This document shows, piece after piece, positions 220 to 64,000 of a stretch of DNA of 64,000 nucleotides. Under the pieces are notes generated by a model that was given only the letters and a program-made list of their open reading frames with translations, did no database searches and was not told the DNA's origin. The position numbers and the translations under genes are program-made. Within the stretch, counting starts at the first letter, position 1. Each line of letters starts with the position of its first letter. The stretch is from Malacoraja senta (lineage: Eukaryota): contig CM075988.1 of NCBI GenBank assembly GCA_038087875.1, positions 18,912,001 through 18,976,000 on the forward strand, read 5' to 3'.

Positions 220-425
220 TCAGCGGGACAGGCAGCAGCTCTGGAGAGAAGGAATGAATGATGTTTCGGGTTGAGACCCTTTTGCAGAAGGGTCTGAAGA
301 AGCGTCTTGACCCAAAACGTCATCCATTCCTTCACTCCGGAGATGCTGCCTGTCCCGCGGAGTTACTCCAGCATTTTGTGTCTGTCTGCAGTTTAAATCA
401 GCATCTGCAGTTCCTTCCTACACAT
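220..425. repeat. Head-to-head inverted pair of Penelope-derived mini-repeats with a degenerate hammerhead core
   Basis: Left arm (gggacaggcagcagctctggagagaaggaatgaatgatgtttcgggttgagaccc) is the reverse complement of the right arm (ctgaagaagcgtcttgacccaaaacgtcatccattccttcactccggagatgctgcctgtccc). Similar sequence forms the pseudo-LTR at 29242-30222. Confidence 0.75.
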
Positions 426-1916
426 CTTTAATAACGTTTTTAATATGATGGAGGATTTGAGGAATTAGTGTACACATCACTACGACAGTTCAAAAAGACT
501 GTAAAAAGTTCTCAGAACTAGGGTTTAATGTTGAGAGCAGCAGAATTGAAACGCATGGAACTTATGTTTCTTGGTTAGATCACACTCTAAATATATAATA
601 TTTATAGGTTCTGGGAAAGATACATAAAAGTTTGGCGACAAAACGAAGGTACCTAACAGGGAACATAGACCGAAATTGTACCTTCTGGGAAAATGAGTGA
701 TGGAAGAGAGCTTTACAAAATTATTACAACAGGCTTGCCAGAGTGGATGGATAAAGAGATTTATATCCGCAGAACCTAATGCTTTAAATATATCAACAAA
801 TGCAGTAGGAAGTTCAGGAGAAACTATTTTTCCTTGTGTATTCTCATTGGGAATGGCAGATAGGAAAAACGTCAATGCCTCCAGGAGAAGTCACTGAAAA
901 AAGTCATACCCATAAAACACGGATAAGGAGCCAAAGAGCAGAGAAACATTTCATCCATGTAGGTCCAATTCATCCATACCGATCAAGGTACCCCATTTAA
1001 ACTAATCCCATTTGCCCGCGCTTGGCCCAAATCTCTCCAAATCTTTCTTATCCGTGTACCAGAGTCAGAGAGAGCAGCCGGGAGAGAAGTTAACTGAAGG
1101 AAGTGGCGCTGGGTTAGCTGAAGAATGGCGGTAGAGCCCTGTGTAGAGCAGAGGCACCAGTACAGACCTGTCGGCAGTGGCACTCAATGACATGCTCCAA
1201 AGTCAGAGTGTTTGGCGATATTTCAACAGTGATTTGCGAGCATTAGACTAGGTTAACTCGCACGAGCAGATTAAGCAGCGAGATAATTACTAGGACTTCA
1301 GATGCCCGTCTCTGTGGCCAGAATATTGAAAGGGTGCAGTATCTGGATCGCAGTAGATAACTTCCATTTACAGAGCGGCTGCCAGCTCGTTCAAAGAGAA
1401 AGCCAGGAAGAATTGGAATGGTGATTCAAATGTATTCACACATGTAACTTCGCAAGGTTAAAGAGGAGACTTTTGATCAAATTGCTCAGATCAAATGATC
1501 ATTCCCTTTCTTCCTTGTAATCTCGATGATGAGGTAATGAATTTATGAGTCACAGTCACACATAGATTTAATTTGGAACTTGACGGATAACTTTTTCATG
1601 CAGAGGGTGGTGGGTATGTGGAACGAGCTGCCAGAAGAAGCTGTAACGGTACAGGAGTAATCCATGGCATTGGAGCAGTGTTTAGCCGCACATTCGTGGG
1701 TCCAACTGCCAGTGCTTTTGTGATCACATTTGAGGAAGAGGACAATGTCAGGATTGAAGAACTCAGATTTGTAGCTTAATTGGCCTGGCATGAATGTAAA
1801 TTGTCCCTAGTAAATGTCAGATAGTGTTAATGGACGGGGATCGCTGGTTGGTGTGGACTCGGTGGGCTGAAGGACCTGTTTCTGCATTGTAATTAAGCTA
1901 AAACCGTAGATAATAT

Positions 1917-4169
1917 TTCAGATTCAGATTCAGATTCAGATTCAGATTCAACTTTATTGTCATTGTGCAGTGTACAGTACAGAGACAACGAAATGCAGTT
2001 AGCATCTCCCTAGAAGAGCGACATAAATATGAGCAGTAAATAAATAAATCTAATCTAATAAATCCTGGTGGGAGGAGTGTCCGGGGGGGGGGGGGGTGTG
2101 ATTGGCAGTCACTGAGGTACAGTGTTGAGTAGTGTAACCGCCGCAGGGAAGAAGCTGTTCCTGGACCTGCTGGTCCGGCAACGGAGAGACCTGTAGCGCC
2201 TCCCGGATGGTAGGAGGGTAAACAGTCTGTGGTTGGGGTGAGAGCAGTCCTTGGCGATGCTGAGCGCCCTTCGCAGACAACGCTTGCTTTGGACAGACTC
2301 AATGGTGGGGAGTGAGGAACCGGTGATGCGTTGGGCAATTTTCACCACCCTCTGCAGTGCTTTCCGGTCGGAGACAGAGCAGTTGCCATACCGTACTGTG
2401 ATGCAGTTGGTAAGGATGCTCTCGATGGTGCAGCGGTAGAAGTTCACCAGAATCCGAGGAGACAGATGGACCTTCTTTAGTCTCCTCAGGAAGAAGAGAC
2501 GCTGGTGAGCCTTCTTGACCAGAGTTGAGGTATTGTTGGTCCAAGAGAGGTCATCGGAGATGTTGACCCCCAGGAACCTGAAGCTGGAAACACGTTCCAC
2601 CTCCCTCCCGTTAATGTGGATGGGGGTGTGCATGCCGCCCATAGACTTCCTGAAGTCTACAATGAGCTCCTTGGTCTTCTTGGAGTTAAGGGCCAGGTTG
2701 TTGTCAGCGCACCATGCTGCTAGGAGCTGGACCTCCTCCCTATAGGCCGACTCATCGTTGTTGCTGAGGAGGCCAATCACCGTTGTATCATCTGCATACT
2801 TGATGATGGTGTTAGTACCATGTACAGGTGTGCAGTCGTAGGTGAAGAGGGAGTAGAGGAGGGGGCTCAGCACACAGCCCTGTGGAACGCCGGTGTTCAG
2901 GGTGAGGGTTGAAGAGGTGTGCTTGTCTAACCTAACAGACTGGGGTCTGTTGGTTAGAAAGTCCAGTATCCAGTTGCAGAGGGAGGGGTCGATGCCCAGG
3001 TCACCGAGTTTGGTGATCAGTTTAGAGGGTATGATGGTGTTGAATGCTGAGCTGTAATCGATGAACAGCATTCTTACGTAAGTGTCTCTGTTGTCGAGGT
3101 GGGAGAGGGCGGAGTGAAGTGCCGTTGAGATGGCATCCTCCGTACTCCTGTTCTTGCGGTAGGCAAACTGATAGGGATCCAACGTGGGGGGTAGGCAGCC
3201 TTTGAGGTGTGCCAGGACCAGCCTCTCGAAGCACTTGGCGATGATGGGAGTAAGTGCAACAGGGCGGAAGTCGTTGAGGCTTGCCGCAGTGGAGTGTTTT
3301 GGCACCGGCACGATGGAGGTGGATTTAAGGCACGTGGGCACAACTGCTTGGGCAAGTGACAGGTTAAAGATGTCAGTCCAGACGTCTGTCAGCTGCGCAG
3401 CACAGGCCCTGAGGACGCGCCCGGGGATGCCGTCGGGGCCAGCAGCCTTACGTGCATTAGTCCTACTCAGTGCCACGTACACGTCGAAGGGGGTGAGTGA
3501 GAGGGGCTGGTGATCGGCAGGGAGCACCGCCTTGATGGCCAACTGCCGATTGTCCCTATCGAAACGGCCATAGAAGTGGTTGAGCTCCTCAAGGAAGGAG
3601 GCGTTACTGGATGTGGGGGTGGTGTTGGTGGGTCTAAAGTCCGTGATGGCCTGGATGCCTTGCCACATGCGTCGGGGGTCGGAGTTGTTGTTGAAGTGCT
3701 CCTCAATCCTGAGTTTATGGCAGTGCTTGGCCTTCTTTATGCCCTTCTTCAGGTTAGCCCTGGATGAACTGTAGGCTCGGGCATCGCCTGACCTGAAAGC
3801 GGTGTCCCGTGCTTTCAGCAGTAGCCTGACCTCGCTGTTCATCCATGGCTTCTGATTCGGGAATATGGTCACCTGTTTGAGGGAGGTGACGCTGTTGATG
3901 GTGGAGTTTATAAAGTCCAGAACAGATGATGTATAGGAGTCAATGTCCGTGTGGGAGTCAAGGGTGGCCTGGGCTGCAAACGCCTTCCAGTCAGTGTTTC
4001 CAAAACACTGCTGAAGTGTGCAGTCCGCATCCTCTGACCAGACTTTAACTGTCCTCACAGTGGGTTTAACCCGTCTGATCAGTGGGGAGTACTTTGGGAG
4101 CAGGAACAATGAGAGGTGATCAGACTGTCCAAGGTGGGGGAGGGGGACGGCTTTGTAAGCTTCAGCCAT
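1917..4169 (-). mobile_element. Rex1/Babar-clade LINE, 5'-truncated, young
   Basis: Uninterrupted ORF from the end of the APE domain (LGQSDH) through RT ([29 protein letters not shown]) to the Rex1-type C-terminus (LPSGRRYRS...NSFFP). The 3' UTR ends in AATAAA plus a (CTGAAT)n tail at 1917-1950. Confidence 0.92.
2109..4169 (-). CDS. Rex1/Babar reverse transcriptase ORF (N-terminally truncated)
   Basis: ORF track 2109..4202. About 11 N-terminal codons come from flanking DNA; the remaining ~685 codons have no stop. Confidence 0.85.
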
Positions 4170-5227: not shown

Positions 5228-6084
5228 TTATTCTAATAGAATTCCAGGAGTGCAGAGCAAAAGGTTTCAAGGATATTTTAGGAATCTTCTTGAGGAATGA
5301 AAGATCCTCACTGACTAGTGAGGACCTCTGTCCTGTGACTACTCAGAATAGAGAAGATACATCTGAGAGAACATTGAGGGTTTGTGTCTTCGTGCTGGGA
5401 GACTTTAGACCTTAGAGATACAGCAAGGAAACAGGCCCTTCGTGCCACCGAGTCCGTGCCGACCAGTGATCACCCATATACTAGAGCTATCGTACGAACT
5501 GTGGGAGATTAGCATCTCTGGAGAACATGCATAGGTATAGGTGATGTTTTGGGTCAGGATCCTTCCACAGACTGATAGTAGTAGGCAGAAGAAAATGAAA
5601 AGAGGTGGGGCGGGACAAAGCCTGGCGAGTGATAGGTGGATACAAGTTGGGAGGGGGGAGCTGTTGATTGGCAAATTGGTGGACAAAGGCTAGAAATTGA
5701 AAAGGTCTCCAGGTCTCTTTCTGTGACAGTATTCAGAGCCTTACTTCAAGGCGTTTGATACTTCTATAAGATCCTCTGATACTAATCTCTGCTTAATGAT
5801 CTTTTGGAATATTAGATGGAGTGGGAAATCAGATTTGCATCTTCCCACTGCACAAAATATGAATCTCTGACACATTCAGATTAATTTTTTCATACACTTT
5901 TGGTGAGCTGCATTGGGTGAGTTCCTATACCAGTAGCATCAGACTAAAACTGCTGTAGGCTGCACTTGGATGATCCAATGTCCTTTCTTTCCTTGCAATA
6001 ACAAATTTGAATTGTACAATTATGATATATATAAATAACATGCCAATTTGTAATATCTAATATCTATTTGTAATATTATGATAT

Positions 6085-6385: not shown

Positions 6386-6679
6386 TCAATTATCAGTGAG
6401 ATGATTTTGGTTAATCACCAATAATAAATTGCATAATGTTTTTAAGAAGGAACTGCAGATGCTGGAAAATCGAAGGTAGACAATAAGTTGTAGTTTGCAA
6501 AACATAAAGTGCTGGTGGAACTCAACCGGTCGGGTAACATCTGTGGAAGGAATGGACAGGCAACATGTTGGGTCTGGACCCTTCGTCACACTGATAGTGG
6601 TTATTCGCCTAGGCTAATCCGACTGCACTTTCCAACCATGAGCTCTCCCACCAAGAGCTACAATGGCCATAGGGCTATA

Positions 6680-16900: not shown

Positions 16901-18679
16901 AGGCACAGAACGGATGCTTTTCGAGAAAAAAGCCATGAAAAACTCGCTGTCAGCTTCAAGGCATTCCACAAAATGTTCAACAACATCTGATAAGATGCAA
17001 ACTTGTCTTCTCCCCTGCAGATTAAATCATATTTATTTCAGTCATTGACATGGTGAACTCTTTGAAGAAACTGACAGCAGTAAAAATAAAATTAATTTCT
17101 CGGATGCATAAGGTAATGCAGAAGCAGAAGATCGGAAAGGTTTGAAGAGATATGGACCAAACCCAGGCAGGTGGGACAAGCTTGGATGGCGCATCATCAT
17201 TGACATGGACAAGTTGGGCCGAAGGGCGTGTTTCCAGCTGTATGACTCTATGACTCAATAGGACCACACGGTGGTGCAGCTGATAGAGCTCTGCCTCACA
17301 GCCCCAAAGACTTGGCTGCAGTAAATTGGCTGCAGTAAATAACTTTGAGTGTGTATTGAGTGGATGCGAATGTGGGATAACTTAGAACTAGTGTGAACGG
17401 GCGATGGATGGTCGGCACGGACTGAGTGGGCCGGAGGGCCTGTTTCCACGCTATATCTCCAAGTAAGTAAGTCTATCTGTATCTATCTGCAGTCTGAAGT
17501 AGGGTTCTGACCCAAAACATCACCCATCTTTTTCTCCAGTGATGCTGCCTGACTTGCTGAGTTACTCCAGCACTGTGTGCCTATCTTAAGAATCTATCAA
17601 GATCCCTTTGTGACTGCCTATGATTTTGACTGGAAGAAATCACATGCACAATGCTGATGAAGTATTGCATGTTTCTTTATGCTGAACCAACTATCCGTAT
17701 GGCACAAAACATATAAATCCTGGGAATTCCTCTGGAGACCACTCACATCTGGAGGAGGGGGGGTGTAAATCTCCTTTCAGCTGTAATTGGGTATGTAGTT
17801 TATTTCCCACAGAGTGAACAGTGTTTGTGGAAGGCCGCGGGTGTAATCGTTAGATCATCTATGCATGTGTGATCGTGGTACTGTCTACTGAAACTGACTG
17901 AGCAAGTGTGAGACGTTGTACTTTGGGAGGGGGAGGTATCTGGTTGATGGCAAAATACGTAACAGGCCCAAGGGCTGGATAGAGTGGATGTGGAGAGGAT
18001 GTTTCCAGTAGTCGGAGAGTCCAGACGGCACAGCCTCAGAATAAAAAGACGTACCCTTAGAATGGAGATGAAGAGGACTTTCTTGAACAGGACGGCAGTG
18101 AATCTGTGGAATGCATCGCCATAGAGAGTGGTAGTGGCCAAGTCATTGGGTATTATTAATATGGAGATTGATAGGTTCTTGATTAATAAGAGTATCAAAG
18201 GTTAGGGGTAGAAGGCAGGAGAATGAGGTTGAGAGGGATCATTCATGATCGAATGATGGAGCAGGCTCGATGGGCCGAATGGCCTAATTCTGCTCATATG
18301 TCTTATGAACTAATAAACAACATTAATGTGCAGAGATATCTTGAAGACCATGCTCATACACAAGTAGATAGAGTTTACCAGATCTATTCCTCTCTTGACT
18401 TTTTACACCACTATAAGATCAGCTTGCTCAACCTCTCCCTATAGCTCAGGCCCTCGACTCCTGACAACATCCTCATGAATTTTCTCTGCACCCTTTCCAG
18501 CTTGACAACATCTTTCTTATCTCAAAGAGTAGTGGAAGGTCTCCCGAACCACCCATCAAACATCACCCGTCTCACCTTAGCTAGTCCATACGTCCCACCA
18601 CAGTGGTCTCATTCATCGCATCCAAACCCATTGAACCAGAGTCAAAGCACATCAACGTCAACCCTGAAGGGGGGAAGAT

Positions 18680-19220: not shown

Positions 19221-19979
19221 ATAATGCAGAAGGGTTGAACACATTTCAAGCGCAACTTGCAGATAGAGTGAAGCGGCATGGATGCCTACCAGGATGCCCT
19301 ATCTAAGCTGGTATACACTTCCCACATTGGCCAGTATCCACCTAGACCTCTCCCATCCATCGTCTCAAGGCCGATTCTTTAAATGGAGTAGGGAGATGGA
19401 TTCAGAAGGTAGACTGGACAATTTGTGACCTCTCAATACCAATAAGCCTCAGCTAACGGCACGATATGATCATTGCCTGAGGAGCAGCTTGGCTTTGCTT
19501 TTGCCAAAGAAAACAAGAAGTGAGTTCTGTGAATTCCTGTTCTGTTTTACAACTTAGCTTCAATGTGTGAAATGGAAATGGAAACCATTTAACACACGTA
19601 ATTTAATGAATGAAGTACTGGTGTCATGTAGACCATTTAGATCAGGTTTTCATCACATGCTCTGTTGTTATTGTTTTTGGACAGTAGGTAATGTTTTAAT
19701 AATAGTCAGAGACCCAATTGAATTCCCTCTACTAACACCCTCCCCCACCTGACCTAAATAGTCCTCACCCTCAACAACCTTTCTTAAGAAGGGTTTCGGC
19801 CCGAAACGTTACCTATTTCCTTCACTCCATAGATGCTGCTGCACCCGCTGAGTTTCTCCAGCATTTTTGTGTACCTTTCTTTTTACTCCTCTGGCTATGT
19901 CCGGTGATCGCTGGTCGGTGCCGACTCGGTGGGCCGAAGGGCCTGTTTCCGCGCTGTATCTCTAAACTAAACGAAAGAT

Positions 19980-20370
19980 AAAGGTGTAGCCAACCATGCC
20001 GACCTTTTGTTGGTGACATCGAACAGCTCTTGTTCCAAACATACACTGGCACCATCCCCCAACTCCTTCTCTGATACATTAACGACTGCATTGGGGTTTA
20101 CCCCAAAGATAGATGCTGGAGTAACTCAGCAGTCCAGACAGCATCTCTGGAGCAGGGGAATAGGTGATAGGTACAGAACTCGTTAATTTTCATCAACTTT
20201 ATCAGTAACTTCCACCCTGCCCTCAAATTCACTTGATTGTCTCTGACACCTCCCTCCCCTTTCTTGATCTCTCTGTCCCCATCGCAGGGGACAGACCATC
20301 AACTGACATCTGCTACAAACCCACCGACTCCCACTGTTATGTGGACTAGACCTCCTCCCACTCTGCCCTC
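19980..20370 (+). mobile_element. Degenerate Penelope-like RT fragment
   Basis: Decayed LFVGDIEQLLFQ, L*YINDCIG (YIDD-like), FHPALKFT, PFLDL and YKPTDSH motifs, interrupted by a mini-repeat. Confidence 0.6.
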
Positions 20371-21785: not shown

Positions 21786-22609
21786 CTGGAGTAACTTAGC
21801 GGGCCAGGCAGCATCTCTGGAGAGAAGGGAATGGGTGACATTTCAAGGTTGGGACTGAAGAAACCTTTTGTCTAACTTCTGTTTAAACCAATATCTGCAG
21901 TTTCCTTCCTACACATAAGAAAGCACGGGTCACTATGGACAACAATATCTTTCCTAGAGTCATCATACGCAGAAACAGGCCATTCAGCCCAACCCGCCTG
22001 TGCTGCCCATCTAAGCTACTTCATTTGCCCGTGTTTGGCCCTTATCCCTCTTGATCCATGTAACTGTCCAAATATATTTAAATGATGTATAGTACCTGCC
22101 TTAACTACCTTTGCTGGTAGCTCGTATTATATCGTATCATATACTCACCATGCTCTGAGTAAAAAGTTACCCCTCAGGTTCCTTTAAATCTTTCCCCTCT
22201 CCCCTTAAACATGTGTCATTCGGGTCAGTCTGAAGAAGGGTCTCGACCGAAACTCACCCATTCCTTCTCTCCGGTGATGCTGCCTGTGCTGCTGAGTTAC
22301 TCCAGCTTTTTATATCATCCTTTGGTTTCAACTAGCATCTGCAGTTCCTTCATACAGCTTCCACATCACCCTCTGCTTCCTTCTATGAAGCCAATTCTGT
22401 ATCCAGTTTGCTAGCCATGCCTAGATCTCATGTAATCAAAATGTTAAGTATACAAGGCTGAAGGCTTTCTATCTCAACACGTAAGGCATTCACAATATGA
22501 TGGGCAACCCAGCTGCACAGATGGATGTACATGGACATGATAAAGCTTTGATTGAGGAGAGAAGGCTGCAGGGTGTCTTGGAATGGGAACTAAATTTGAA
22601 TGATCACCA

Positions 22610-33052: not shown

Positions 33053-33211
33053 TTTTAAAGCTCTGTGATTTCAAACCGTGAAACACTTCACTCGCTGCCG
33101 AAGTCATTCAAGGGAGGAAGTATGTTATCGTAATCAACCATGAATCTGTTTGTAAACAATAATGGTATTTATTAAACAATAACAAAAGAAAAATGCTCCC
33201 CCGGGCTTAAA

Positions 33212-41575: not shown

Positions 41576-43669
41576 ATTTAGCATTAATTCAGTACATTTT
41601 CTTCTGTTTTCGCGTCAAATATTTCCAAAAGCGAAGAACGTTGTAAGATTACTTTGCTCCCAGGAGGCACAATACATGCTGACTGCACACACAGATTCTC
41701 TAGACATGAAACAAGGTCAAGCTGAATTCTATGGGGGGGTGGAGGCAGAGATTCTCAGAAAGGTTAAGAAGTAATTGGATAAACAATTGAATAGCCAAGT
41801 TTCAGAAGGCCAGTGGTGAATGGGACTAGTGCCCATGAGTGCTTGATGGTTGGCTTGGGCTTGATGGGCCGAAGGGCCTGTTTCTTGGATGCATGGCACT
41901 AATTATATCATGATCGTTCATGAAAGGCCATTGATTAATTCTATCCACAGTCTGGCCTGCTGAATATTTCTATTTTTTAAATAAATGTCACCACACTAAT
42001 TCTTGGAATTGTGACCCTCTGTTGTCTCATTTTCACCTCTCGCCTTTGTCACTTATCCCACCATCTGACAATTACTCCCTAACCTGTACCTACCTATCAC
42101 TTGCCAGTCTCTGCCTTACCCCCACCTCTTTTTTCCAGCATTCTTCCCCACCCTCCCCACTCCATCACCGAAGAAGGGCCCCGACCGGAAATGTTGTCTG
42201 TCCATTCCCTCCACAGATGCTGCCTGACCTGCTGAGTTCCTCCAGCACCTTGTGGTTTGCACAAGATTTCAACATCTGCAGCTCCTTGTGCTTCCATTGA
42301 CGTTGGAGTCAACATGTTGGCATAAGAGGTGAGCAATAACGAGCTAGATGTTGTGAGAAGAAATGTCTTCACTCAAAAGGGTGTGAATCTTTGTATTGCT
42401 CCTCTGAGACAGTAGTGTTGCTTGGTCATTGAGAACATTCAAGACAGTGACTGATAGGTTTTTTTTGGATACCAAGTGCACCAGGAGATACGGTGAACAT
42501 GAATGGAGTGTTGAGCCAGAAAATCACCCATGGTAGAATAGACCCGAGGGGCTGAATGGTTCATTCTTGCTCCCTCGTCTTTGTATAATTCAGATATCTG
42601 GAAAAACGAACTCAAACTATTTCAGAAGAGCAATGTATATGGAGGCCCATTAACCAGATCTGAACATAGCAATTGAATACCCTATGAGGTGTAATGGACA
42701 TTGATATGCCAATTACAGTGATCGCAAGTCTATTTCACCATGTTTCTGCTTTGTTTAACTATTAACCATTTTAGGATGTCTTGTTGGAGTCAATATTGTT
42801 CTGTATTTTGAAGGATATTGTGCAGAAGGTTTGACAAATTATTCATGACTGTTAAATTAATCAGCCATAAAATGCCAAGGAAAGTGAAAGATTGCTTTGT
42901 AGTACTAAAGCTTTTTCTGAAAAGCTATCAAATGACATAGTGGGTAGGAGCTGTGGAACACAACTGCTGTGAGATGCGTGGCTCTGTCGGAGCTGGATTG
43001 AGCGCCGCTGGTCACACCCCTGCCCTTTACGGAACAGCTCACACAAGGAGCAACATGCACTGCAGGTCACTGGGATGAACTGAAGCAAGGTGGGTTAACA
43101 AAGTAAAGGTAACCTGGGACTCGAAGACACAACATGGTGTACCAAATTGTGAGGAACCTATCTGAACCCATCTTTGCTGTTTACAAATACTTATCTGTTG
43201 ACAGGATATCTCAAACATTCTTTTCATTGACTCATGGAGTCATACAGCACGGAAACAGGTCCCATGGCCCAGCGTGCCCAAGATATACCAGCTACACTAG
43301 TTTCACCTGCCTGCATTTCGCCCATGTCCCTCTAAATCGTTCCCATCCATGCATATTAGGTGTTGTGATAGTAGCTGCCTCAACTACCTCCTCCGGCGGC
43401 TCATTCCACATACCCACCACTCTTTGTGTGAAAAAGTTGTCCCTCAGGTTACTATTACATTTTTTCCCTCTCACATTGAAATGATGCCCTCTGGTTCTTG
43501 ATTCCACTACTCTGGGTAAGCCACCCTGTGCATTTACCCTATCTATTCCCATCATGATGTTACACACCTCTACGTTTCCTTCTGCTTTATAGAAAATGTG
43601 AATTATTACATTTCCTGGGTTCTTTTAAAAGAACAACAATGAATCCAATATTTAATCAAAGGGATCTAC

Positions 43670-46525: not shown

Positions 46526-46732
46526 AGTCCTCACTGACTGTCGAGCACCCATTTGTATCGCTTTTACTCGAATCCCATTTTCTATTTTCCCGACGTTCCT
46601 CATGAACTCCCCCAGATTCTGCTGCTCACCCTGCACTATGAGGCAGTAATTTACAGTGGCCAATTAGCCTAACAAACTCAGTAAATCAGCACTGCCCAGT
46701 GGTCTACCATTAACTGTATATGTCCTATCCTA

Positions 46733-47090
46733 GGTACACAAAAATGCTGGAGAAACTCAGCGGGTGCAGCAGCATCTATGGAGCGAAGGAAATAATAATA
46801 ATAATAATGGATTTTATTTACGGGCGCCTTATACCGAGGTCTCAAGGACACCATACAGAGATTTATAGAAAACATATAATCAGAATTAAAAAAAAAAAAA
46901 GGTTATAAAGACCAATACATAAATCAGGGACAGAATTTCTTCCAAAAACACAAAAAAAGAAAATCAGAAGCACAATTTGAGGAGAGAGCAGCGGCAATTT
47001 AACGCCAGCGTCCACTCCCCCTCCGACCGCCATCTTGAACACAGACTAACAAATACAATTACAAACAATTAGGGCCGAAACCCTTCAGAC
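46733..47090 (-). mobile_element. Penelope-derived mini-unit with a TSD, containing a nested ~280-bp LINE derivative
   Basis: 14-bp TSD TATGTCCTATCCTA (46719-46732 and 47091-47104). The nested insert at ~46792-47070 has caagatggcg near its 5' end and an L2-like (tta)n tail. Confidence 0.7.
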
Positions 47091-50000
47091 TATGTCCTAT
47101 CCTACTTGACCTCTCAAAACGCTACACCTCGCACTTTGAGACGCCCATTATGAAGAAGTGTCCTGACCCGAAATGCCTCTCATTTCCTTTCACTGATGCT
47201 ACCTGATCTGCCGAGTTCCTCCAGCACTTTGTGTTATGCTCAAGACTGCAGCATCCACATTTTCTTGTACGTTACCTCACACTTTTATCTACCAATGCTC
47301 TGCTTAATTTTCCATCTGAACTACAGGTTTTGTTTGGTTCAGAGATACAACATGGAAACAGGCCCTTCGGCCCACCGAGTCCGTGCCGACCATCGATCAC
47401 CCGTTCACACTAGTCCTATGTTATCCCACCGATACATCCACCCTCACGCACTAGGGGGCAATTTACACGGGGCCAATTAACCTACAAATCCGTACGCCCA
47501 CGGGATGTCACAGGGAGAACGTGCAGACTCCACACTGACAGCAGCCGAAGACAGGATCGAACCTGGGTTTCCGGCGCTGTGAGGCAGCAGCTCTACCACT
47601 GAGCCACTGTGCTGCCCTATAAATAGTGCTGTGGTGCTGGACACTTTTCACAACACCACTAGCCTTTGTCACCTTTATGAACTTACGAACCACACACTCA
47701 CATCATAGTCACTAAAATAAAACAGATCCAGCCTGTTCATTACACAGTTTTACCCCGCCTGTTTCCACAGTTTAAAGTTTGCATTTGCTAATGTCAGCAA
47801 ATTTGTAACCTAACCTACAGCGTAATTTCTAACTACATTGATTTAGGGGAGGGTGTTAATGACTGTAGATGCATTCAGAAACAATGACGTGCCTCGCGGT
47901 AGAATCTTTCTGGATGAGTGAATTATTGTCGGTTAAAATGTCTTCCTTGTCAATAAGCATCTTGTGAAATTCAGTCCACCAAAGCAAAACTCCAACCAAA
48001 CAACTTGTCTAACAGATGCACAATTTCGAACACACTGTGAAGAGACGATGTTGGTGGGCGAAGGGCCAAGGGGGTGATGCGTGGCTGATTAAACCCGGTG
48101 CTCCGGTTTCTTCCCACACTCCAAACACGTACAGATTTGCAGATTGTAAATTGTCCCTAGTGTGTAGGATATTGCCAGTGTATGTGATTGCTGCTCAGCG
48201 TGGGCCAAATGGCCTGTTTCCATGCAGTATCTCCACAGTCTGACGTCCAAAGCCTTACTTAGCTTCTGCAAATTGTCCCTGGTCTGGGGGAGAGTGAATG
48301 AGAAAGTGGGATAACATGGAACTAGTGCGAATGTGTGAATGATGGTTGGTGTGGACTCGGTGGGCCAAAGGGGCCTGTTTCCATGCTGTATCTCTAAACA
48401 CTTTGAAAAAGCACTAGGATTTGTGGTATAATAGGAATCAGGATAGAGTCGCAACGTCATACAGCACAGAAACAGGCCCTTCGGCCCAACCTGTCCGTGC
48501 CGACCAAGATCCCCCATCTAAGCCAGTCTCATTTACCTGTCCCTGGCCTATATCCCTCTAAACCTTTCCTATCCATATACCAATCCAAATGTATGTTAAA
48601 TATTGTCTTTATATCTGCCTCAACTACTTCCTCTACAGATCATTCCACAAACACCTCACCCTCTGCATGAAAAGGTTTCCCCCTCAGGTTTCTATTAAAC
48701 CTTTGCCAACTCACCTTAAACCTATGCCCTCTGATTCTTGATTTCGCTATCCGAGGAATAATGCTCCGTATAATTCTGTACACCCGCTATAAGATCACCC
48801 GTCATCCTCCTGCCCTCCAAGGAATAGAGTCCTGGCCTGTCCAGCCTCTCCCTGTAGCTCAGGCCCTCGAGTCCTGGCAACATCCTCACAAATGTGGGAT
48901 TAGTGAAGAGAGATGGGGCTGAAATGACTGGTCTGCCGTGATCTTATCGAATGACACAGCAGCCACAAGGGCCCGATTCTTTTGAGTTCTTTTATTTCTG
49001 CATTTGAGGATGTGGTTTTAGTGAGTGCTACCTTAACAACTTGTAAAATTGGGATGAAAGGATTGACAATGTATTTACTTCAACCCAGGAGAATGTGACA
49101 TTACGAAGATTATTGCTCTGTCTCCCTGATGCTCTGTGACATTTCATGTGTGGGCTGTATGTAATAAAGAGGATTACACTCCTGGTTGTTAGATTCATAC
49201 CAACACAGACCTTAAAACCTGCCTGGAAAAATTGCTGAATTCTTGCATTCCCCGCAGCTGTAATTATATTACCAAGTTTACTCCCGATAGATAACAATCA
49301 ATATATCAAGGATATTACATAATGGTGTATCAAAGCATTGAGGGGACCCAACATGTCAAAGTGCAACAGAAGTAGGTAATCATTTTATTAAATAAATTAC
49401 AAATTCTTCGCTGCAGCAGCGGTAAAACCTGTTCCTTAACACAAGCAAGAAATCTGTCTGTTTGCAAATCCCCTGATCACCTGGGATTAAGTCCGATGCC
49501 AAATCCAAATACTGCAGATGCAGTATTTATACACTGCAGTGTGGATGTATAGGAAGTTGGTGAGGCCGCATTTGGAGCATTGTGTTCATTTGGAGCTATA
49601 GAGTCATACAGCAGGGAAACAGGCTGCCTGTTCCGACAGTGACTAGCAGTGTTCCACAGGGGTTGGTACTGGCCACTGTTCTTCACGTGGTCTATCAATG
49701 ATTTGGATGGGGAATTGAAGGCATTGTGGCCAAGTCTGCAGATGATACGAAGATAGGCGGAGGGGCAGGTAGTGTGGAGAAAACAGGGGCTCTGAAGAAG
49801 GACTTGGACAGGTTGGGAGAGGGGGCAAAGAAGTGGCAGGTGGAATACAGTGTAGCAAAGTGTGGAGACATGCATTTTGGTTGTTGGAATAAAGGTGTAG
49901 ACTATTTTCTAAATGGGGAGAGATTCAGAAATCTGAAGTGCAAAGAGACTTCGGAATGCTGGTACAGGATTCCCAAAAATTCCCCAAATGTTAATTTGCA

Positions 50001-50460: not shown

Positions 50461-51967
50461 GAGGATTATTACCTGGAATTGTTGAACTCAGCATTCTGCC
50501 TATAATTTGCTACTTGAGCCGTTGTTGCGGCTCGGTGTTGAAGGCCGAGGATAGAAAGATGAGATTAAACAACAGATTAAACTGGCGGATGACTGGAAAT
50601 TCAGGCTTGCTTGTTGGTTAAATTGAAATGTTCTTCAAAATGGTGGCCAGCAACATTAGTCTCCACTCCACCACGTAGAGAGTATGCGCTCAGCATTAAG
50701 CAGATTGGTGTCCGATCGATTTCAACCTTATGTTCTTATTTATCAGTAAGATATTTCAATCAACAAAGAAGCTCCACAAATACAGATCAGCCATAACATT
50801 GGCAGAGCATCAATTTAAGCATTAGCAGCATGAGTTGCACTTGGGTAAATAAAACCAAAGTATTAAATTAAATAACCTGAATGGCATTCTCAATTTGGAC
50901 AATGAATTACATTAATCTGGAATGAAACCTAGCAACATAATTGGAAGACCTCTGCACTGTAAAATCCCCCATCTGTTTCAAAGGGACACCAAGTGCTGGA
51001 GTAACTCAGCAGGTCAGGCAGCATGGCAGTCTGGAGAACATGGATAGGTGATGTTTCAAGTCGGGACCCTTCAGATATCGGGAACCGAGTTTTATGAGAC
51101 CCTCTCTCCCTGCTTCCCCTCTGCGGAGTCTGAAGAATGGTCTTGACCCGATACGTACCTTCAAAATGGAGATGAGGAGGAATTAATTCAGCCAGAGGGC
51201 GGCAAATCTATGGAATTCATTGCCACAACATGGCAGTGGAGGTCAAGTCATTGGGTCATTCCATCTGGAGTTATCGGAGTTATCTACCGATGACTGGGTC
51301 TCTACTTCCGGACATGAAAGATGCTCCTGATGGTCAGGGGGGTCCACAGTCTGCGGGGCACAAGGAGGAACATTTAGGAATGAAATGAGGAATAATCTCT
51401 ACACCTGCAGAGTGACAGATCTGTGCCGTTCTCTGCCACGGAGAATAATCGAGAGCCAACTCATGAACAGTAATCTGGTGGGAGTTAGATGTGGTTATAT
51501 GGTTAGAGAGAGTGAAGGATGTGTGGGGAATGCAGCCACAGCGTAGTCAATGGATCATGTTGAAGAGAGGCCAGGCTCCCATTCTACTCCTGCTCCCATT
51601 CTACTCCCTGTTTCTTTGTTTATATGCTACTATAAGGCCTTGTTTATACATTATCTGCTCTAAGCAGCAACGACAGACACTTAGAGAATGGAACTGAGGC
51701 TTGGTCGAGTCATTGAGTCATACAACACGGAATCAGGCCCTTTGGCCCATCTCGTCCATGCCGACCGAGATGCCCCGTCTAAGCTAATTCCATTTGCTAG
51801 CATTTGGCCCATATCCCTCTCAACCTTTCCTTTCCCTAAAGTGGAACACAGCATCACAAGTACTCAAATGTGTAGGAAGGAACTGCAGATGGTTGCTTAA
51901 ACCAAAGATAGACACAATAAGCTGGAGTAACTCAGCAGAACAGGCAGCATCACTGGAGAGAAGGAAT

Positions 51968-51999
51968 GGGTGACGTTTCGGGTCGAGACCCTTCTTCAG
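51968..51999 (-). ncRNA. Minimal hammerhead-ribozyme core in a Penelope-derived repeat (best-preserved copy)
   Basis: Minus strand reads CTGAAGA-A-GGGTC-TC-GACCC-GAAA-C-GTC-ACCC, i.e. CUGAnGA, helix II, GAAA and a GUC triplet. Confidence 0.6.
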
Positions 52000-52061
52000 T
52001 CTGAAGGCGCTGTAAGGAAGCAAGTCCACTGCTGTGTGTGGGGCAGGAAGGTGTGGCCCTC

Positions 52062-52651: not shown

Positions 52652-52668
52652 TGTGTGGCTTTGGACAG

Positions 52669-52764
52669 TAGACAAAAATGCTGGAGAAACTCAGCGGGTG
52701 AGGCAGCATCTATGGAGAAAAGTAGGCGACGTTTGGGTCGAGACCCTTCTTCAGACTTTGTCTT
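52669..52764 (-). mobile_element. 96-bp Penelope-derived hammerhead mini-unit
   Basis: 17-bp TSD TGTGTGGCTTTGGACAG (52652-52668 and 52765-52781); core agtctgaagaagggtctcgacccaaacgtcg. Confidence 0.75.
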
Positions 52765-54364
52765 TGTGTGGCTTTGGACAGGTACATGGATAGGAAAGGT
52801 TTAGTCTACCAGTGTAGATGGGGCAATTTGGTTGCCATGAGCAAGCTGGGCCGAGTTCATAAGCTGTTGGAGCAGAATTAAAAATATCCATTGACTTGGC
52901 TCCACAGCCTTCTGTGACAATTAATTCCTCGGATTCACCACCCTCTGACTAAAGAAACTCTTCCTCATTGCCTTTCTAAAGGTACGTCCAGTTATTCTGA
53001 GGCTATGGCCTCTGGTCCTAGACTCTCCCACTAGAGGAAACATCCTCTCCACATCCACTCTATCCAGGCCTTTCACTACTTGGTAAGTTTCAATGAGTCC
53101 CCCCACCCCCCCCCCCCCTTCCCACCCCGTTAGCCGAGGACCTGTTTCCACGTTGTATGACTTTATGACTCAATGCCTCTGGAGGGTTAAGAGATAATTT
53201 AACGTAAGTTTTTAAGATATAATTAGCACTGCTCTTCTGGAACTGCAGTGACCTGGTTTGATCCTGATCCCCCGGAGCTTTCTGTGTGGTTTTCAAATTG
53301 CATTATGGTGAGAGTTTCCATAGCCTGAATAATTTTTTTAATGGAGTATAGGATGGCAAGACGTGACCTTATTGACGTGTACACGATCAGGAGGTGTAGG
53401 GAAGTTTGTTCCCCAAGGGTGGAGAATTCAAATCTAGTGGACATAGGCTTATGGTGAATGATTCAAGGATCCCAGGGGCAACTTTGTCATTCAGAGGGTA
53501 GTCTGTATCTGGAATAAGCAGTCAGAGGAAGTGGGTACAATTAGGACTTCAAAGACATTTTGACAGATATGTGGATCAGGAGGATTTAGAGGGATAAGGG
53601 CCGAATTCAGGCAAATTGGACAAGCCCAATATGTCAACTTGGTTGGCATGGACTAAGAGGGCCGAAGGGCCTGTTCCCATGTTGTACAGCTCAATGACGA
53701 TGAAGGGTGTTTCCAAAGATGGGTTCCGACTAGAAACGTCACCTGTTCCTTTTCTCCGGAGATGATGCCTGACCCACTGAGTTACTCCAGCATTTTGTGT
53801 CTATCTATGACGATGGCATTGTGCTGTGTGACTGTAGGGAATTAAGGAGCTGCTGGGGTTGACATGACTCCATGTGTCAAATGGCCTCTTCTGTACCCTG
53901 GTAAGAAAGGAAATAAGATGCCAAGGGGTAGTTTAAGATGAACAGAGGAAAACATGTTCCATTCTTCGTTTCAGAGTCCAACCGCGGTGGAAGTTGTGTG
54001 GGAAGGAATGGCAGATGCTGGTTTACACCAAAGAGAGACAAAAAATGCTGGAGTAACTCAGTGGATCCGGCAGCAACTCTGGAGAAAAGGAAGAGGTGAC
54101 ATTTGGGGTTGAGACCCTTCTTCAGACCTCAAAACGTTGCCTATTCCATTTTCTCCATAAAATGCTGCCTGACTCGCCGAGTTACTCCAGCATTCTGTGT
54201 CTATTCTCGGGTGGAAGTTGTTTGATAATCAGATGCAGGCACGTCAGGAACATTACCAGAGCAGAGTGTGAGGTGTCAGATGGAAATCGATGCATGCTGC
54301 CATTGAATATTTTTATAGCTGACCTTCCTAGTGTAGAATTAGATAACTGATCACAAGATTACAA

Positions 54365-55120: not shown

Positions 55121-56469
55121 AATGGGATAGCATCACAGGTGTGAGGGGCAGGAAGGCATTCACCAGTTCCTAAAGTTTACAACAGAGTACAGTAATAATA
55201 TCTATTCCCCTCAGTGCTTTTTTTGTCGAAAAGGGGTGTTAGTACGCAGATGTAGTTTTTAAAGTTTTATTGATGCTGGTATGCTGTACAGGTGTATACC
55301 CTCACAAAGCTCTCCTTCCCTGTACCTTAGTAACAAGATGCAGGCTGGTATGCATGAGATTAATATGAGTTTCATGATTTGCAATGTGTGGTTATGCGTC
55401 GATGTATTATATAACATGTTCTTTGTTTAGCCATTCGTCTGGGGAAGGATCCCGAACCGAAACGTCACCTGTCCACATTCTCCACAGACGCTTTCTGACC
55501 CACTGAGTTACTCCAGCACTTTGTGTCTTATTTTGTAAACCAGCATCTGCAGTTCCTTGTGACTACATTTTGCCCGCTCTTTAATGATCAGCTTCAGTCA
55601 GACTGAGTTAATCTGGTCATGCAACCTTGCATCACCGAGGATTATTTGACAGCTTCACATAAACAGATCCCACAAGGCTGACCTCGTTCCTGCCTGACCA
55701 ACATTTTACACTGCCCTCTGTTTATGGATGTGCTGCTCTGTTTTCCAAACTGGATCTCATTCAACTCAATAAAGCCTCATTTGTTTTTTCCCCCCAAAAG
55801 TTAAAACGCATGCAGGGATTAACTCTGCTGAGAGTTGGAATGGCATCAACCAGAAATAGGTTTTTTAAAAGTGTTAATTGCATAATGGTGAATTGGAGAT
55901 AGATCACTGGACTGAATCTCTGATTATTTTTCCCCACAACCATCAACTGTTACAGAAGAAACACTCGCATTACATTAATTTCAGAGTTGGTGAAGTCTGT
56001 GTGCAGATAAATGGGAGTGAACTAAGGGATTCAATGGGGCAACAGTGTCAGATAATTTATTGCACTCCTTTTACAGCTACATCTCATTTGTCCCTATAGT
56101 ATTTTTGTCTCGTGGATTCGCTCTGAACTACCCGCGCTGAGTGACTTCAAAGTGAAAACATTGGTGCTCCAAATATGACTAAATAGTTAATTACACAGAG
56201 CTGTGAGCTGGAAGCTTCGCTGTTCAGACTGTAAAGAACAGGTAACTGTGAATAAAGTGATAGTTCTCCCCTCGTGATGTATCTTCTGGTGAAAATGAGT
56301 TAAGAGAGTGATTAGACATCCTTTCTGTTTAACGAGGGTGTTCATGGAGGTGAAGCCAAGGGGCTGGGGTAGCTGATAAAGATGGCAGAACTGCAATCAG
56401 ATGATGGGGATCTAGAGTGCAAGCATCAGGAGGGAAACACCTTCAATCCTGGACCTGAGACCAGAGAAG

Positions 56470-59358: not shown

Positions 59359-61644
59359 CTGATGTATAAAATCATGAGAGGAATAGGTATAGTAAATGCA
59401 CAGAGTCTTATCCAGGGTAGGAGAATCAAGAACGAGAAGACACATGTTGATGGGGAGAGGGGAAATATTTAATAGGAATCTGAGGGGTAATTTTTTACTC
59501 AGAGCATGGTGAGTATATGATACGAGCTACCAGCAAAGGTAGTTAAGGCAGGTACTATACATCATTTAAATATATTTGGACAGGTACATGAATTTAGAGG
59601 AATATGGGCCAAACATGGGCCAAATGGAAGTAGCTTAGATGGGGCAGCACAGGCGGGTTAGGCTGAATGGCCTGTTTCCTGCGTGTGAGATAGTGTTGTC
59701 CATCGTGACCCTTGCTTTCTTATGTGCAGATGTTGGTTTAAACCGAAGATAGACACAAAAAGCTTCTTCAGACCCTACCTCAGTCTCGACCTGAAACGTC
59801 ACCCATTCCTTCTCTCCAGACATGCTGCCTGTCCCACTGAGTTACTCCAGCTTTTTGTGTCTATCTTGCTTTCTTATGGTGGGTAATGGAAAAAATAAAA
59901 CTGATTAAGGTGAGATACATTCTTTGCTGAATTCAGTCCGAATGCTTTCATTACTTCATAGAACTCCAGATCTGATTTAGATTTCACAGGTGGGGACTGG
60001 TTGGAGCTGTTGGTAGCTGAGCAGAGGTTGGTAAAAGGACATCCAGGAAGAGGTTGATCTGAAACCCAAAATGATTGAATTGAAATAAAGTAAAAGAAAA
60101 ACAATTCTGAATGGATTTCGAACATTGTAATTAGTTCAATGTCTGAAGCAGCCCCAAAGCTTCTTTCTGTGGTACTGCAATTTGATGTTTCAAATGAAAT
60201 ATCTGCATAAACGCTGATGAATTTTGACAGATTAAATCTGGAACAAATGATGCAAAGTGAAGCAATTAAAAAAAACCCTCCCTTGCTGGGATGTGCGTGC
60301 CACAGGCAAGGTGGCGTCTGATCCTTGTCCCCGAGACAACGGAGGTGTAGGTGGCCAGAGGAATGTTACTCCCTCACCATGTATCTGTGCACCTTAAATG
60401 GATCGACTGTAATCATGTGTCGTCTTTCTGCTGACTGGTTTTCTGGTTTTCGCACGCAGCAAAAAAGCTATTCACTGTACCTCGGTGTACGTGACAATAA
60501 ACTAAACTGAACAAGGACTCCGGCTCTTGACGGGGGAATGGACTTCAACAGGTGCACGGTGTAGTGGACACACTGACTGGTTGCATCAGGGGCCTGGGTC
60601 AGCAAACTCGAACCAAGCCAGGATCAAAGAAGAGAGTGGTGGACTATGCCCGATCCATCACAGGTATCATTGGCCACAGAGGGTCGTGGAGGCCAAGTCA
60701 ATGGATATTTTTTTAAGGCAGAGAGAGATAGGTTCTTGATTAGTATGGGTGTCAGGGGTTATGGGCAGAAGGCAAGAGAATGGGGTTTGGAGGGAAAGAT
60801 CGATCAGCCATGATTGAATGGCGGAGTAGACCTGATGGGCCAAACGGGTGAATTCTGCTCCGATCACTCATGAGCTTATGACCTAGGAACAAAGTGCTTG
60901 TGTAACAGCAGAGAACAGTGGCGAAAAAGGAAGGGTGACGTTTTGGGTTGGGACCCTTCTTCACACTGAAAGTAGAGGGGAGGGAACTGGAGGTAAGAGC
61001 ACTCCGAAGCATTACCCCATCCTTTTTCTCCAGAGGTGCTGCAGCACTTGTGTCAATCTTCGATATAAGCCAACACCTGCAGTTCCTTTCTACACAGGTA
61101 TCGGCCTTCCCAGGGATCTATGGGAGGCGCTGCCTCAGAAAGAGAGCCAATTTCATCAAAGGCCCACATCACCATCTCCTCAAGGCCATTAAATCCTGGT
61201 CTCTCTGTGACACCCGGATCTTGATAAATTAATAAATTAAAAATTCAACCAGAGGCCTAAACTCCTGATCGGGAGACATTAGTTTAAATCCCAATTATGG
61301 TACTGAGGGAATTTAACATTCAATTAATTAATTATAGGCAGTTAAAAGCTAGTATTAGTGAGAGAATGAACTGAGATATGAGAGAATGAGAAAATGAACA
61401 GTTTTTCTCTGATTGTGCAGATATATGGATAGGATGGGTTTTAGAGGAATATGGGCCAGAAGCAGACAAATGTGTCCCTGCAATGTAATCAACATGGACA
61501 AGGTAGGTAGAATTGGTGCGTATGACAATTAATTCAACTTGGCTTGATACAATAGTGTTTGTCGTAACAAAATACCTCCTGACGTGCTGGCACAAAACAG
61601 CCAATAGTACCGGAGCAATTTCCACTTTGCAAACACATGTCTAA

Positions 61645-62112: not shown

Positions 62113-63649
62113 AATGATTTGCAGTGGAGCCACATTTCAGATGCAGGAGGCAACAGGGAGCCTGGATTTCCCCTGCTTGTTCAATACAACCAGCTGAGGG
62201 AACATTTTTTGAAGCAGCCCTACAAAGAAGTTAACAAATAGTTCAACAAATGTGAAAGCTGGTATCCTAGACAACGGGGCCCACCCGTGCTGAAATGTCG
62301 ACTGCATTATTCTGCTCAACTTCATTGTTTAATCCACAGTTCCGGCTCAGAGATGATGGTGTTACCGTTTGAGTCAAAACAGATTGGAAAGCATCAAAAT
62401 TAAACAGCCAGTGGAGACCAGCTCTGCTTCTGTCAACCACGAAGTTAAAACACTGGAAATAGACTGTTTCTATGGCTGGAGGGAATCATTCGAACTTCAC
62501 CACTCATTGAATTCGGGATACGCCAGCAGATATTTGAGCCATATTGACAGACAACAATTAGACAAATACAAATTTTCACTTTCCATTCTCATTGAAAGTT
62601 CAATGGATCAGGGTGATAAATAATGGCAAGGACAATTCTTTGTGGGGTATCTTCCTGCCTAGGAGGTATCTTAATCGTTAACAGGCTTTTTTAGCTGCAT
62701 TTCCAACAGAATACTAAACCATGTGCCTGAAGACAAGCTCGGAGCATCTTCTCTGCAACATGTCATCTCTACTTTCAGGGAAATAGCCTAATTATAGCCA
62801 ATTAAAGTCAAATCTTTCGCAACCAAAGTTACCTCCCATTACAGCCCTTCAATCAATGTGTTTAAAAAAAAAAACTTAAGCCAAACCCACAGCGACTCTC
62901 AGGGGATTTAATGCGCCTCTCAGGGATTTGTCACCAATGATGTACAAAGGGAAACTCATCTTGATGGGATATTATTTTAGCAACTTTCATTTCCATCGGA
63001 AAAGTCTGCAACAGATAAATGAAGTAAAAATCATTACAATAATTACCAAACTGCCTGGGAGTCAGCATAAATTTAACGATCCATCCCAGTAATATTTATC
63101 TGAATTAATGTGTAATTTTAAGACATTTTATGACTGCTTGAAATCCCCTCTGACACATTCGCTCAGTTGCAAAACTTGTTCTTATTCCACCTGACTTTAA
63201 ACCTTATTCCTTAATTGAATGGGATACTTAGCAAACTTTTAAGAACCACCGCAATCATCTTCTGTTGATGGACCAGAAAGCTCATTTAGGCAGGAGGTTG
63301 ATGAAGTAGTTCAGGTTCCACAGGGAGCATCTCTGTAGCTAAGTGGAAAATTTACAATTACCATAACGATTAACAAACTGCTTTCGGTAGAGGTCTACTT
63401 GTCAGTGGTCCCTGACTCTGATCGACATTTCAGCAGCAGGTTCTGGCGGAGAAACTGCTGGTCAGATTTTACCAAGATTTTAATAATTCATATCATCGAG
63501 TCCGTGTTTGGTACAGCACAGAAACAGGCTCAAAAAGCTGAGGATCTCAGCGGGTCAGGCAGCATCTCTGGAGAAAATGATAGATGATGTTTTGGCTCCC
63601 GGTTTTCCTGAACTGAACTTAGAATGGCAACTTAACCTGCCTGCTCACT

Positions 63650-63848
63650 TTGGGCGACTACTCCCGACCATACAGGCGGCATGGTCGCGGGGGTGATGCC
63701 TGTTTGGTCGTGAGTGGTCGCCCAAAGAGTCATACCTTTTTCTGGTCCCCGCTGGATTGTCAATATGTTGAAAATTTCGGCGACCTGCTGTGACTATGAC
63801 GGGTGCCGGCAAGTTGCCGAAAAAAACCGCGTAAGTAGGACAGGCCCT
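63650..63848. mobile_element. Fragment of a Harbinger-type MITE related to 9715-13385
   Basis: Right TIR taagtaggacaggccct followed by TTA; shares catggtcgc and atgttgaaaatttcggcgacc with the first copy. Confidence 0.55.
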
Positions 63849-64000
63849 TTAGGCTAAGACCTCTAGTCTAGACTCTCCCACTAGTGGAAACATCTCTCCA
63901 CATCCACTCTATCACAAGCCTTTCACTATTCTGTATGTTTCAATGAGGTCCACCCTCATTCTTCCCTTATGGAGAGAAGGAATGGGTGACGTTTCGGGTC

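Follow-up and report, generated by a model that had tools for sequence, protein, structure and literature searches.

Short hammerhead-bearing repeats in a Malacoraja senta contig as probable 5'-truncated insertions of Neptune-type Penelope-like elements

Minimal hammerhead ribozymes (min-HHRs) are found in the pseudo-long terminal repeats (pseudo-LTRs or pLTRs) of metazoan Penelope-like elements (PLEs), and the thousands of mostly single min-HHRs, some in opposite-strand pairs 100-700 bp apart, have been read as truncated PLEs (PMC4209133). PLE insertions are described as having an inverted layout and an optional 30-40-bp tail (PMC8557442, PMC3846280), and in Anolis carolinensis Poseidon the two 3' ends reflect two internal starts of reverse transcription (PMC11167929). 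The stretch of DNA considered here (the window) comprises 64,000 nucleotides of Malacoraja senta (GenBank assembly GCA_038087875.1, contig CM075988.1, positions 18,912,001 to 18,976,000), repeat-rich animal DNA that contains many short repeats with a hammerhead-like core. These repeats, referred to as stubs, are probably abortive, 5'-truncated insertions of several Neptune-type PLE subfamilies, cut down to the pLTR end with its minimal hammerhead and tail. The stubs are linked to a GIY-YIG-encoding PLE, are laid out as inverted arms, are flanked by duplications of 9-17 bp, possess two 3' ends and have decayed in a neutral-looking manner.

A profile seeded on 13 copies and then iterated identified 38 arms at E<=0.05, compared with 0-1 in each of ten shuffled sequences; all arm counts are for the 64-kb window only. 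The arms occupy 3,261 nt (5.1% of the window) and many of them form inverted pairs. The unit is about 95-135 nt long and consists of the hammerhead-like core followed by about 65-105 nt of conserved tail, and each arm is the 3' end (pLTR) of a PLE. An earlier sequence-only reading had cited about 20 copies, and 20 of its 21 positions fall on profile arms. The remaining position, 47075, has no profile arm, but a 20-nt minus-strand core fragment is present at 47072-47091. That reading also had all copies sharing the full core and a stem of 5 bp with a 2-nt loop, neither of which held up: CTGA.GA...GAAAC matches only three places, and the stem has 4 bp with a 4-nt loop. No account of the stub family was found in a title- and abstract-level search of the skate and ray literature.

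The link to PLEs is provided by 29242-30222, a single insertion flanked by two exact 15-bp repeats, which is a 5'-truncated, head-to-head, Neptune-type PLE. Its minus arm contains the linker and GIY-YIG end of the PLE open reading frame (ORF), which is frameshifted near 29723, followed by a pyrimidine-rich untranslated region (UTR) of about 105 nt, the core and the long tail, while the plus arm contains the last 27 codons, the UTR, the core and the short tail. Comparison of the two arms gives 250 identities, 15 mismatches and 16 gap columns. In both arms the core lies about 105 nt past the stop of the GIY-YIG ORF, which bears out the proposals that the motif sits in the pLTR of this element and that the repeats originate from PLE pLTRs. 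The GIY-YIG fragment has 10 relatives, six of them named from sharks or rays, the best being from Leucoraja erinacea (76%). Identity to P0001-P0004 is 57-76% over the endonuclease stretch searched, and tblastn agrees. The copy itself is without the reverse transcriptase (RT) as a result of its 5' truncation, and relatives P0003 and P0006 have RVT_1 matches followed by GIY-YIG matches. A C-x4-C-x2-C linker is present in P0001-P0003, with an aligned, partly decayed motif at 29936-29724. A CX2-5CxxC linker marks Neptune and Nematis rather than Penelope and Poseidon (PMC8557442), and the vertebrate PLEs given by Li et al. (10.64898/2026.07.22.740005) are only Neptune and Poseidon. The source PLE is therefore of the Neptune type, an assignment made from linker and domain order only. 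Neptune PLEs as described in PMC8557442 have in common with the window element and its relatives the order of RT and then GIY-YIG, the CX2-5CxxC linker and CCHH-type residues, as well as 5' truncation, an inverted 5' copy and an optional 30-40-bp tail at one end.

Two further fragments of PLE ORFs occur at 20006-20361 and 40593-40853. Two of the relatives, P0007 (RTP3-like) and P0008 (neuromedin-U receptor 1), are shark or ray gene models that end in PLE endonuclease sequence, which may be due to exonisation or to an annotation artefact; a search for exonised stubs in annotated proteins gave nine candidates, none of them at E<=1. Contigs from four of 24 public runs, representing three organisms, were compared with 29090-29955 (the two large runs had 201,545 and 216,601 records). 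Such contigs carry no information on RNA ends, and their summed depth, which is not a measure of copy number, peaked on the tail in the four runs and was several times lower over the endonuclease (for X1, 33.9M in the top tail bin versus 1.0-8.0M on the endonuclease). An intact core was read in the loose-end consensus of three runs.

The borders of the stubs are those expected of PLE insertions, in keeping with the earlier suggestion that PLE proteins spread them: they show PLE-type duplications, inverted arms and an optional tail. Exact direct repeats of at least 9 nt flank 7 of 27 events, compared with 8 of 702 mismatched flank pairs, and measure 9, 9, 9, 12, 14, 15 and 17 nt. Among 12 neighbouring arm pairs separated by no more than 60 nt, eight are head-to-head and three are tail-to-tail; the single tandem case is the PLE, which lies within an older stub and has its own duplication. 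The 3' ends fall at two positions about 35-40 nt apart (model positions 90-101 in 12 of the 38 arms and at least 118 in 15), and the long tail occurs on exactly one arm in 7 of 10 pairs and on both arms in none. Stems of at least 5 bp are found at only 3 of 11 junctions versus 95 of 998 random windows. Penelope of the rotifer Adineta vaga likewise has head-to-head pLTRs with 8-10-bp duplications, some junction palindromes and solo pLTRs, but it is present there in low copy, whereas stubs make up 5% of the window (PMC3846280). Compared with the Neptune PLEs of PMC8557442, the window has clear duplications of 9-17 bp and little microsatellite targeting, with one stub beside (ATT)n. Three stubs or PLE copies lie in or beside other PLE sequence (20006-20361 on the plus strand, 40593-40853 on the minus strand, and 29227-30237), which suggests that PLE copies insert into their own kind.

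The relationships of the arms also point to truncation. Of 33 curated arms, 7 retain the pyrimidine-rich UTR. A tree was built from the arms with at least 58 aligned columns (27 of 38), and in it the two endonuclease-bearing arms are joined by three solo stubs, 19783, 46791 and 52756 (ultrafast bootstrap 91-95), whose identities to the arm at 29373 are 81/91, 54/59 and 82/88, respectively. Since these solo stubs nest among endonuclease-bearing arms, they look like abortive insertions and not a separate family. Older arms with a UTR (5572, 30381 and 42169) indicate that earlier subfamilies did the same. The idea, taken from the tree, that the two arms of 54004-54212 were copied from different RNA templates was dropped because decay of a single CpG would account for two of the three diagnostic differences.

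The hammerhead core is the majority state of the alignment and is seldom intact in single copies. As had been recognized from the sequence, it has the anatomy of a minimal hammerhead: CUGAnGA with an extra A, a G10.1-C11.1 pair, GAAA, a palindromic C-G, UH and a weak helix I. The extra A between A9 and G10.1 is present in 22 of 23 arms, the G10.1-C11.1 pair is G-C in 17 of 21, and helix II, which is 4 bp with a tetraloop, is paired in 88.5% of cells. The C-G palindrome (15.2-16.2) is the majority state (42/61) with losses that are mostly CpG transitions, and G16.2 is the majority letter in all four runs (77-98%). A difference in the intact share of G16.2 between runs (94-98% in two presumed RNA runs versus 77-80%) was not used because small assemblies drop rare variants. 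The metazoan PLE min-HHRs of PMC4209133 share this anatomy, including the extra base and a short helix I, and occur likewise as single motifs and as opposite-strand pairs. The nearest listed example, from Acropora digitifera Neptune, has nearly the same shape as the window core, and no chondrichthyan is among the 40 species of Fig. S3 in that paper. In comparison with the min-HHRs of PMC4209133, helix II in the window is limited to 4 bp, and a mismatch interrupts helix I beyond its first 2 bp.

Two of the 38 arms match the published core descriptor (0.11 matches per shuffle). Only 51999 (minus strand) adds a 4-bp helix II and the ACGT palindrome, and its first helix I pair is missing; no arm matches the complete published descriptor with helix I included. 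An Rfam scan of the window, a check that the sequence-only reading had put forward, gave 11 matches at E<=5 with no hammerhead model among them. The core is nevertheless conserved above its flanks, as that reading required of a ribozyme: non-CpG core positions are conserved in 203/218 cases, which exceeds both the downstream sequence (1486/1824, p 4e-6) and the two best blocks of the tail (898/1030, p 0.015); these p values are optimistic because the arms are related and profile ends favour matches. Helix covariation, which was likewise looked for, did not appear; double-sided changes were seen in none of eight pairs (22 arms), a test low in power because the arms are close relatives. It also counts against function in the copies that CpG transitions account for 22 of the 45 departures at 13 core and palindrome positions, eight of them at the catalytic G12. 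Both arms of the PLE at 29242-30222 have G16.2>A. Helix I consists of 2 bp, a 2x2 mismatch and 2-3 bp in four of the five arms with undisturbed register, and its pair probability was 0.00 in 9/9 monomer folds. Monomer and dimer folding gave no hammerhead-like minimum, and hammerhead-compatible folds were 5.5-13 kcal/mol above the minimum for all three arms that could be constrained. Cases with a 2-bp helix I are included in the published min-HHR set (PMC4209133, Fig. S3), published min-HHRs cleave poorly even as dimers (PMC4209133), and the Anolis hammerhead cleaves only with protein and has no effect on insertion (PMC11167929). Weak folding is thus compatible with activity in the source elements. 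The inserted stubs are probably for the most part passive fossils.

A route by which the stubs could arise can be proposed with Anolis Poseidon biochemistry and rotifer structures as the model. The PLE protein would bind the pLTR/tail RNA and make staggered cuts in both target strands, and reverse transcription would begin at one of the two internal sites about 35-40 nt apart. Priming would often occur from both nicks to give two arms pointing outward. Copying would pass through the uncleaved hammerhead and usually halt at its 5' edge, at the start of the C-rich tract, and the complementary DNA (cDNA) ends would be joined via short homologies. The core would be kept through selection on the source elements, where it is likely a weak, dimer- or protein-assisted ribozyme. 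The cleavage site is spanned by at least 29 of the 38 arms, and just 3 of 33 curated arms start within a few bases of it. Most arms were therefore copied from uncut RNA, and self-cleavage does not set their length. Uncleaved RNA is also the insertion substrate of Anolis Poseidon (PMC11167929), which has in common with the stubs two 3' ends bounding the tail and a hammerhead upstream of it. Poseidon belongs to a different clade.

Several points weigh against abortive PLE insertion as the source of the stubs. The 5' ends are concentrated at one place, with 18 of 33 within -11..+6 of C3 (about 10 times the per-base rate further inside), eight further inside and seven beyond it in the UTR; this count was curated by hand with five arms excluded (four tail-only and one cut by the window end), and old UTRs that were not recognized would inflate the peak. 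Such a pile-up is also expected from a discrete short RNA. In addition, 20 of the 27 events have no exact repeat of at least 9 nt, the borders used to test for duplications were drawn by eye, when some of the duplications were already known, and the window contains no ORF-bearing copy of the commonest subfamily (51999-type), whose source element is thus putative. Finally, one stub was apparently copied a second time, together with 300 bp of its flank, as described below. Candidate causes of the 5' edge are stalling of the enzyme on entry to the C-rich tract, pairing or snap-back of the cDNA end at the self-complementary TCAG-T-CTGA, as seen at 51999, and an RNA start at the initiator-like TCAGT, in which case the stub would be a complete copy of a short RNA. 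By analogy with Drosophila virilis, a splice acceptor at CAG/TCTGA is a further candidate, the intron of D. virilis Penelope being the precedent (PMC2377424). For an intron from the ORF stop to CAG/TCTGA the acceptor scores in the top 2% and the donor in the top 7% (by a crude matrix), and no shared 5' exon was found upstream of the short arms in the window. Of 947 joints in the run contigs 15 were shown, in a comparison that skipped this tract.

The apparently re-copied stub belongs to a composite insertion, 21786-22354, which interrupts a CR1 ORF2 whose frame resumes beyond it. Its 14-nt duplication matches at 12 positions with two gaps, and stub arms lie at both ends (21783-21855 on the minus strand, 21866-21915 and 22228-22354 on the plus strand). 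Inside is a copy of 59439-59850 (365 identities, 29 mismatches and 56 gaps), so that a locus 38 kb distant is represented, over 430 nt, within a PLE-ended insertion. The copied segment takes in an older stub pair, with one of that pair's two duplications, and about 300 bp of flank. Because only one of the two duplications was copied, the 59-kb locus is the likelier donor, and the pair at 59725-59867 is the likely source of 21786-22217. A host RNA may have been copied in trans with priming by the old tail, or the cDNA may have jumped to a nearby template; the strand of the host gene would help in choosing between the two. Host DNA captured between pLTRs has been described in rotifers (PMC3846280). 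A Pfam scan of 148 of 306 candidate frames for a host gene and its strand gave two weak matches, a separate search gave one low-complexity match, and no gene was found.

It is possible, if rather unlikely, that the main subfamily is a true non-autonomous family resembling short interspersed elements, in which a short RNA starting at TCAGT is recognized by its tail and copied end to end in trans. The clustering of 18 of 33 5' ends at TCAGT/CTGA is what this would produce, PLE pLTRs contain internal promoters (PMC2377424, PMC3846280) and pLTRs alone are enough for mobilisation in trans (PMC3846280), and an older stub's tail forms the end of the composite insertion at 21786-22354. The 5' ends are ragged over about 18 nt, however, and 15 of 33 lie outside the cluster. 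Young solo stubs also fall among arms that carry the ORF, and the RNA evidence is limited to contigs. An RNA starting at TCAGT cannot form helix I, and the ribozyme would therefore be a passenger. Fixed ends with diagnostic changes of their own were not seen in the young subfamily, and the main subfamily has no ORF-bearing copy in the window with which to compare it. The non-autonomous family that the sequence-only reading had proposed is not supported in the strict sense, given the ragged 5' ends and the solo stubs that interleave with endonuclease-bearing arms. In a stronger and equally doubtful form, the stub of about 100-135 nt would be a self-sufficient mobile unit that spreads in trans via the Neptune protein, at times with flanking host DNA. 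If that were true, stubs would be the PLE counterpart of retroviral strong-stop DNA, the hammerhead core would also serve as a core promoter, the clustering of 5' ends would be explained, and batoid genomes would hold a large natural record of PLE RNA starts and reverse-transcription starts.

Two other explanations are far less probable. Non-LTR retrozymes are self-cleaving tandem hammerhead repeats that circularise and could be re-inserted by PLE proteins, so that dispersed copies would be monomer offspring. Retrozymes and stubs have in common a type I hammerhead, pLTR ancestry and no coding capacity (PMC7229834; 10.64898/2026.07.22.740005), Li et al. report retrozymes, including monomers, in one chondrichthyan (10.64898/2026.07.22.740005), the duplications exceed 4 bp, and a 27-nt local core repeat at about 40530-40583 is the nearest thing to an array. 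Described non-LTR retrozymes consist of head-to-tail units of 150-450 bp with a hammerhead in each and form circular RNA (PMC7229834), whereas the stubs are single or head-to-head. None of 21 Tandem Repeats Finder rows for the window is a tandem array of the stub unit, the sole close tandem pair is the nested insertion mentioned above, and no circular permutation about the cleavage site is seen among the copies. Retrozyme hammerheads are mostly canonical (PMC7229834; 10.64898/2026.07.22.740005), and that of the stubs is minimal and not a canonical type I with 6-bp helix I and loop-loop contact. In the absence of a head-to-tail array with a hammerhead per unit in the window, the description of the stubs as retrozyme-like fails its defining test. 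It is just as improbable that the motif has ceased to be a ribozyme even in the source PLEs and is kept as a promoter, splice acceptor or protein-binding sequence, or is merely inherited. The missing covariation, the interrupted helix I, the unfavourable folds and the G16.2>A change in both arms of the PLE would agree with such a loss; the conservation of the core relative to downstream sequence, an anatomy that fits the published consensus down to its 2-bp helix I cases (PMC4209133) and an Anolis motif that cleaves only with protein (PMC11167929) argue against it.

Table 1. PLE and stub features of the window.
Feature	Coordinates	Strand	Basis
5'-truncated Neptune-type PLE, two head-to-head arms	29242..30222	.	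arm alignment, tblastn
PLE ORF end: CX2-5CxxC-type Zn-finger linker and GIY-YIG, frameshift near 29723	29477..29936	-	tblastn with P0001-P0010
Pyrimidine-rich 3' UTR, CAG end directly before hammerhead core	29374..29476	-	
Core (U4>C, G16.2>A) and long tail	29242..29373	-	profile
Inverted arm: last 27 endonuclease codons and 3' UTR	29956..30126	+	tblastn
Core (helix II broken) and short tail	30127..30222	+	profile
PLE left 15-bp target duplication	29227..29241	+	
PLE right 15-bp target duplication; target is older stub's tail	30223..30237	+	
Palindrome, 6-bp stem, at inverted junction	29928..29941	.	
Head-to-head stub pair (220-287 -, 292-425 +), 9-bp duplication	218..425	.	profile
Stub, PLE-type 3' UTR, short tail	5511..5670	-	profile
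Old stub, long tail	6440..6600	-	profile
Solo stub, start CAGT-CTGA	17488..17587	+	profile
Solo young-subfamily stub (UUCG loop), 9-bp duplication	19786..19878	+	profile, tree
Stub starting near cleavage site, within PLE RT fragment (20006-20361 +)	20096..20168	-	profile, tblastn
Composite insertion in CR1 ORF2 around copy of 59439-59850	21786..22354	.	
Very old stub	24015..24118	-	profile
Older stub; PLE inserted into its cluster	29103..29222	-	profile
Head-to-head tail-only arms (30223-30247 -, 30248-30293 +)	30223..30293	.	profile
Old stub and 3' UTR	30281..30480	-	profile
Old tail arm	40353..40421	+	profile
Head-to-head pair, local core duplication (about 40530-40583)	40447..40611	.	profile
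Stub arm (40833-40879), then older PLE endonuclease fragment (40593-40853)	40593..40879	-	profile, tblastn
Old stub and 3' UTR, long tail	42075..42288	+	profile
Young-subfamily tail, start just 3' of cleavage site, adjoins (ATT)n	46727..46794	-	profile, tree
Core fragment, 20 nt, missed by profile	47072..47091	-	
Old stub, 12-nt duplication with one mismatch	47151..47264	+	profile
Head-to-head pair (50980-51072 -, 51128-51156 +)	50980..51160	.	profile
Best-preserved stub, with intact core, 4-bp helix II and ACGT; 5' junction palindromic, helix I absent	51866..52006	-	
Solo young stub, 17-bp duplication	52668..52765	-	profile, tree
Solo stub, 9-bp duplication	53703..53806	+	profile
Head-to-head pair (54004-54127 -, 54129-54212 +), 12-bp duplication	53998..54209	.	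profile
Solo stub, long tail	55437..55560	+	profile
Head-to-head pair, 14-bp duplication; likely donor of 21786-22217 segment	59725..59867	.	profile
Head-to-head pair (60880-60966 -, 61004-61097 +)	60880..61097	.	profile
Stub, start inside helix II	63509..63598	-	profile
Stub cut by window end	63968..64000	-	profile

Other elements are present in the window. An insertion of about 165 nt at 44790-44954 (minus strand; single copy in the window) lies in a CR1 fragment between near-identical 13-14-nt repeats. Its 5' end has a hepatitis delta virus (HDV)/CPEB3-like fold (28.8 bits against Rfam RF00622, E 0.0015, where the gathering score is 35 and is not reached) with P1 6/7, P2 7/7, P3 3/3, L3 as in CPEB3 and almost no P4, and its 3' end is (AAG)n. 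From its sequence the insertion resembles a short non-autonomous retroelement headed by a ribozyme, of SIDE- or RTE-like type, with a tail like that of RTE elements. Stops and shifts interrupt the frames of a DIRS-like retrotransposon at about 32700-37500 (minus strand), in which 34785-36269 is an RT frame and the tyrosine-recombinase frames lie at 33212-34205. Three kinds of non-LTR element are represented by long RT frames at 2109-4208 (minus), 10500-12542 (minus) with 12513-13040 (plus), and 26252-27512 (minus), which are Rex1/Babar-like (with an ALKBH8_N match), L1-like with an inverted piece, and CR1-like. A long GC-rich hairpin at 63644-63730, with a weak match to the MIR9677 model (39 bits versus a gathering score of 90), is probably a small inverted-repeat element. 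An assembly gap of 200 N at about 52030-52230 lies just upstream of the best-preserved stub (51866-52006).

The stubs are therefore not a retrozyme but most likely a commonplace product of an already described type of element, and they extend the association of min-HHRs with PLE pLTRs to a batoid-like genome. The finishing of PLE insertions, including two primed ends, an optional tail and cDNA stops, is still unproven in vivo, and the 38 arms in 64 kb with seven exact duplications of 9-17 bp are a ready data set on this process. That most copies come from uncut RNA gives more weight to the view that the hammerhead does not make the short copies.

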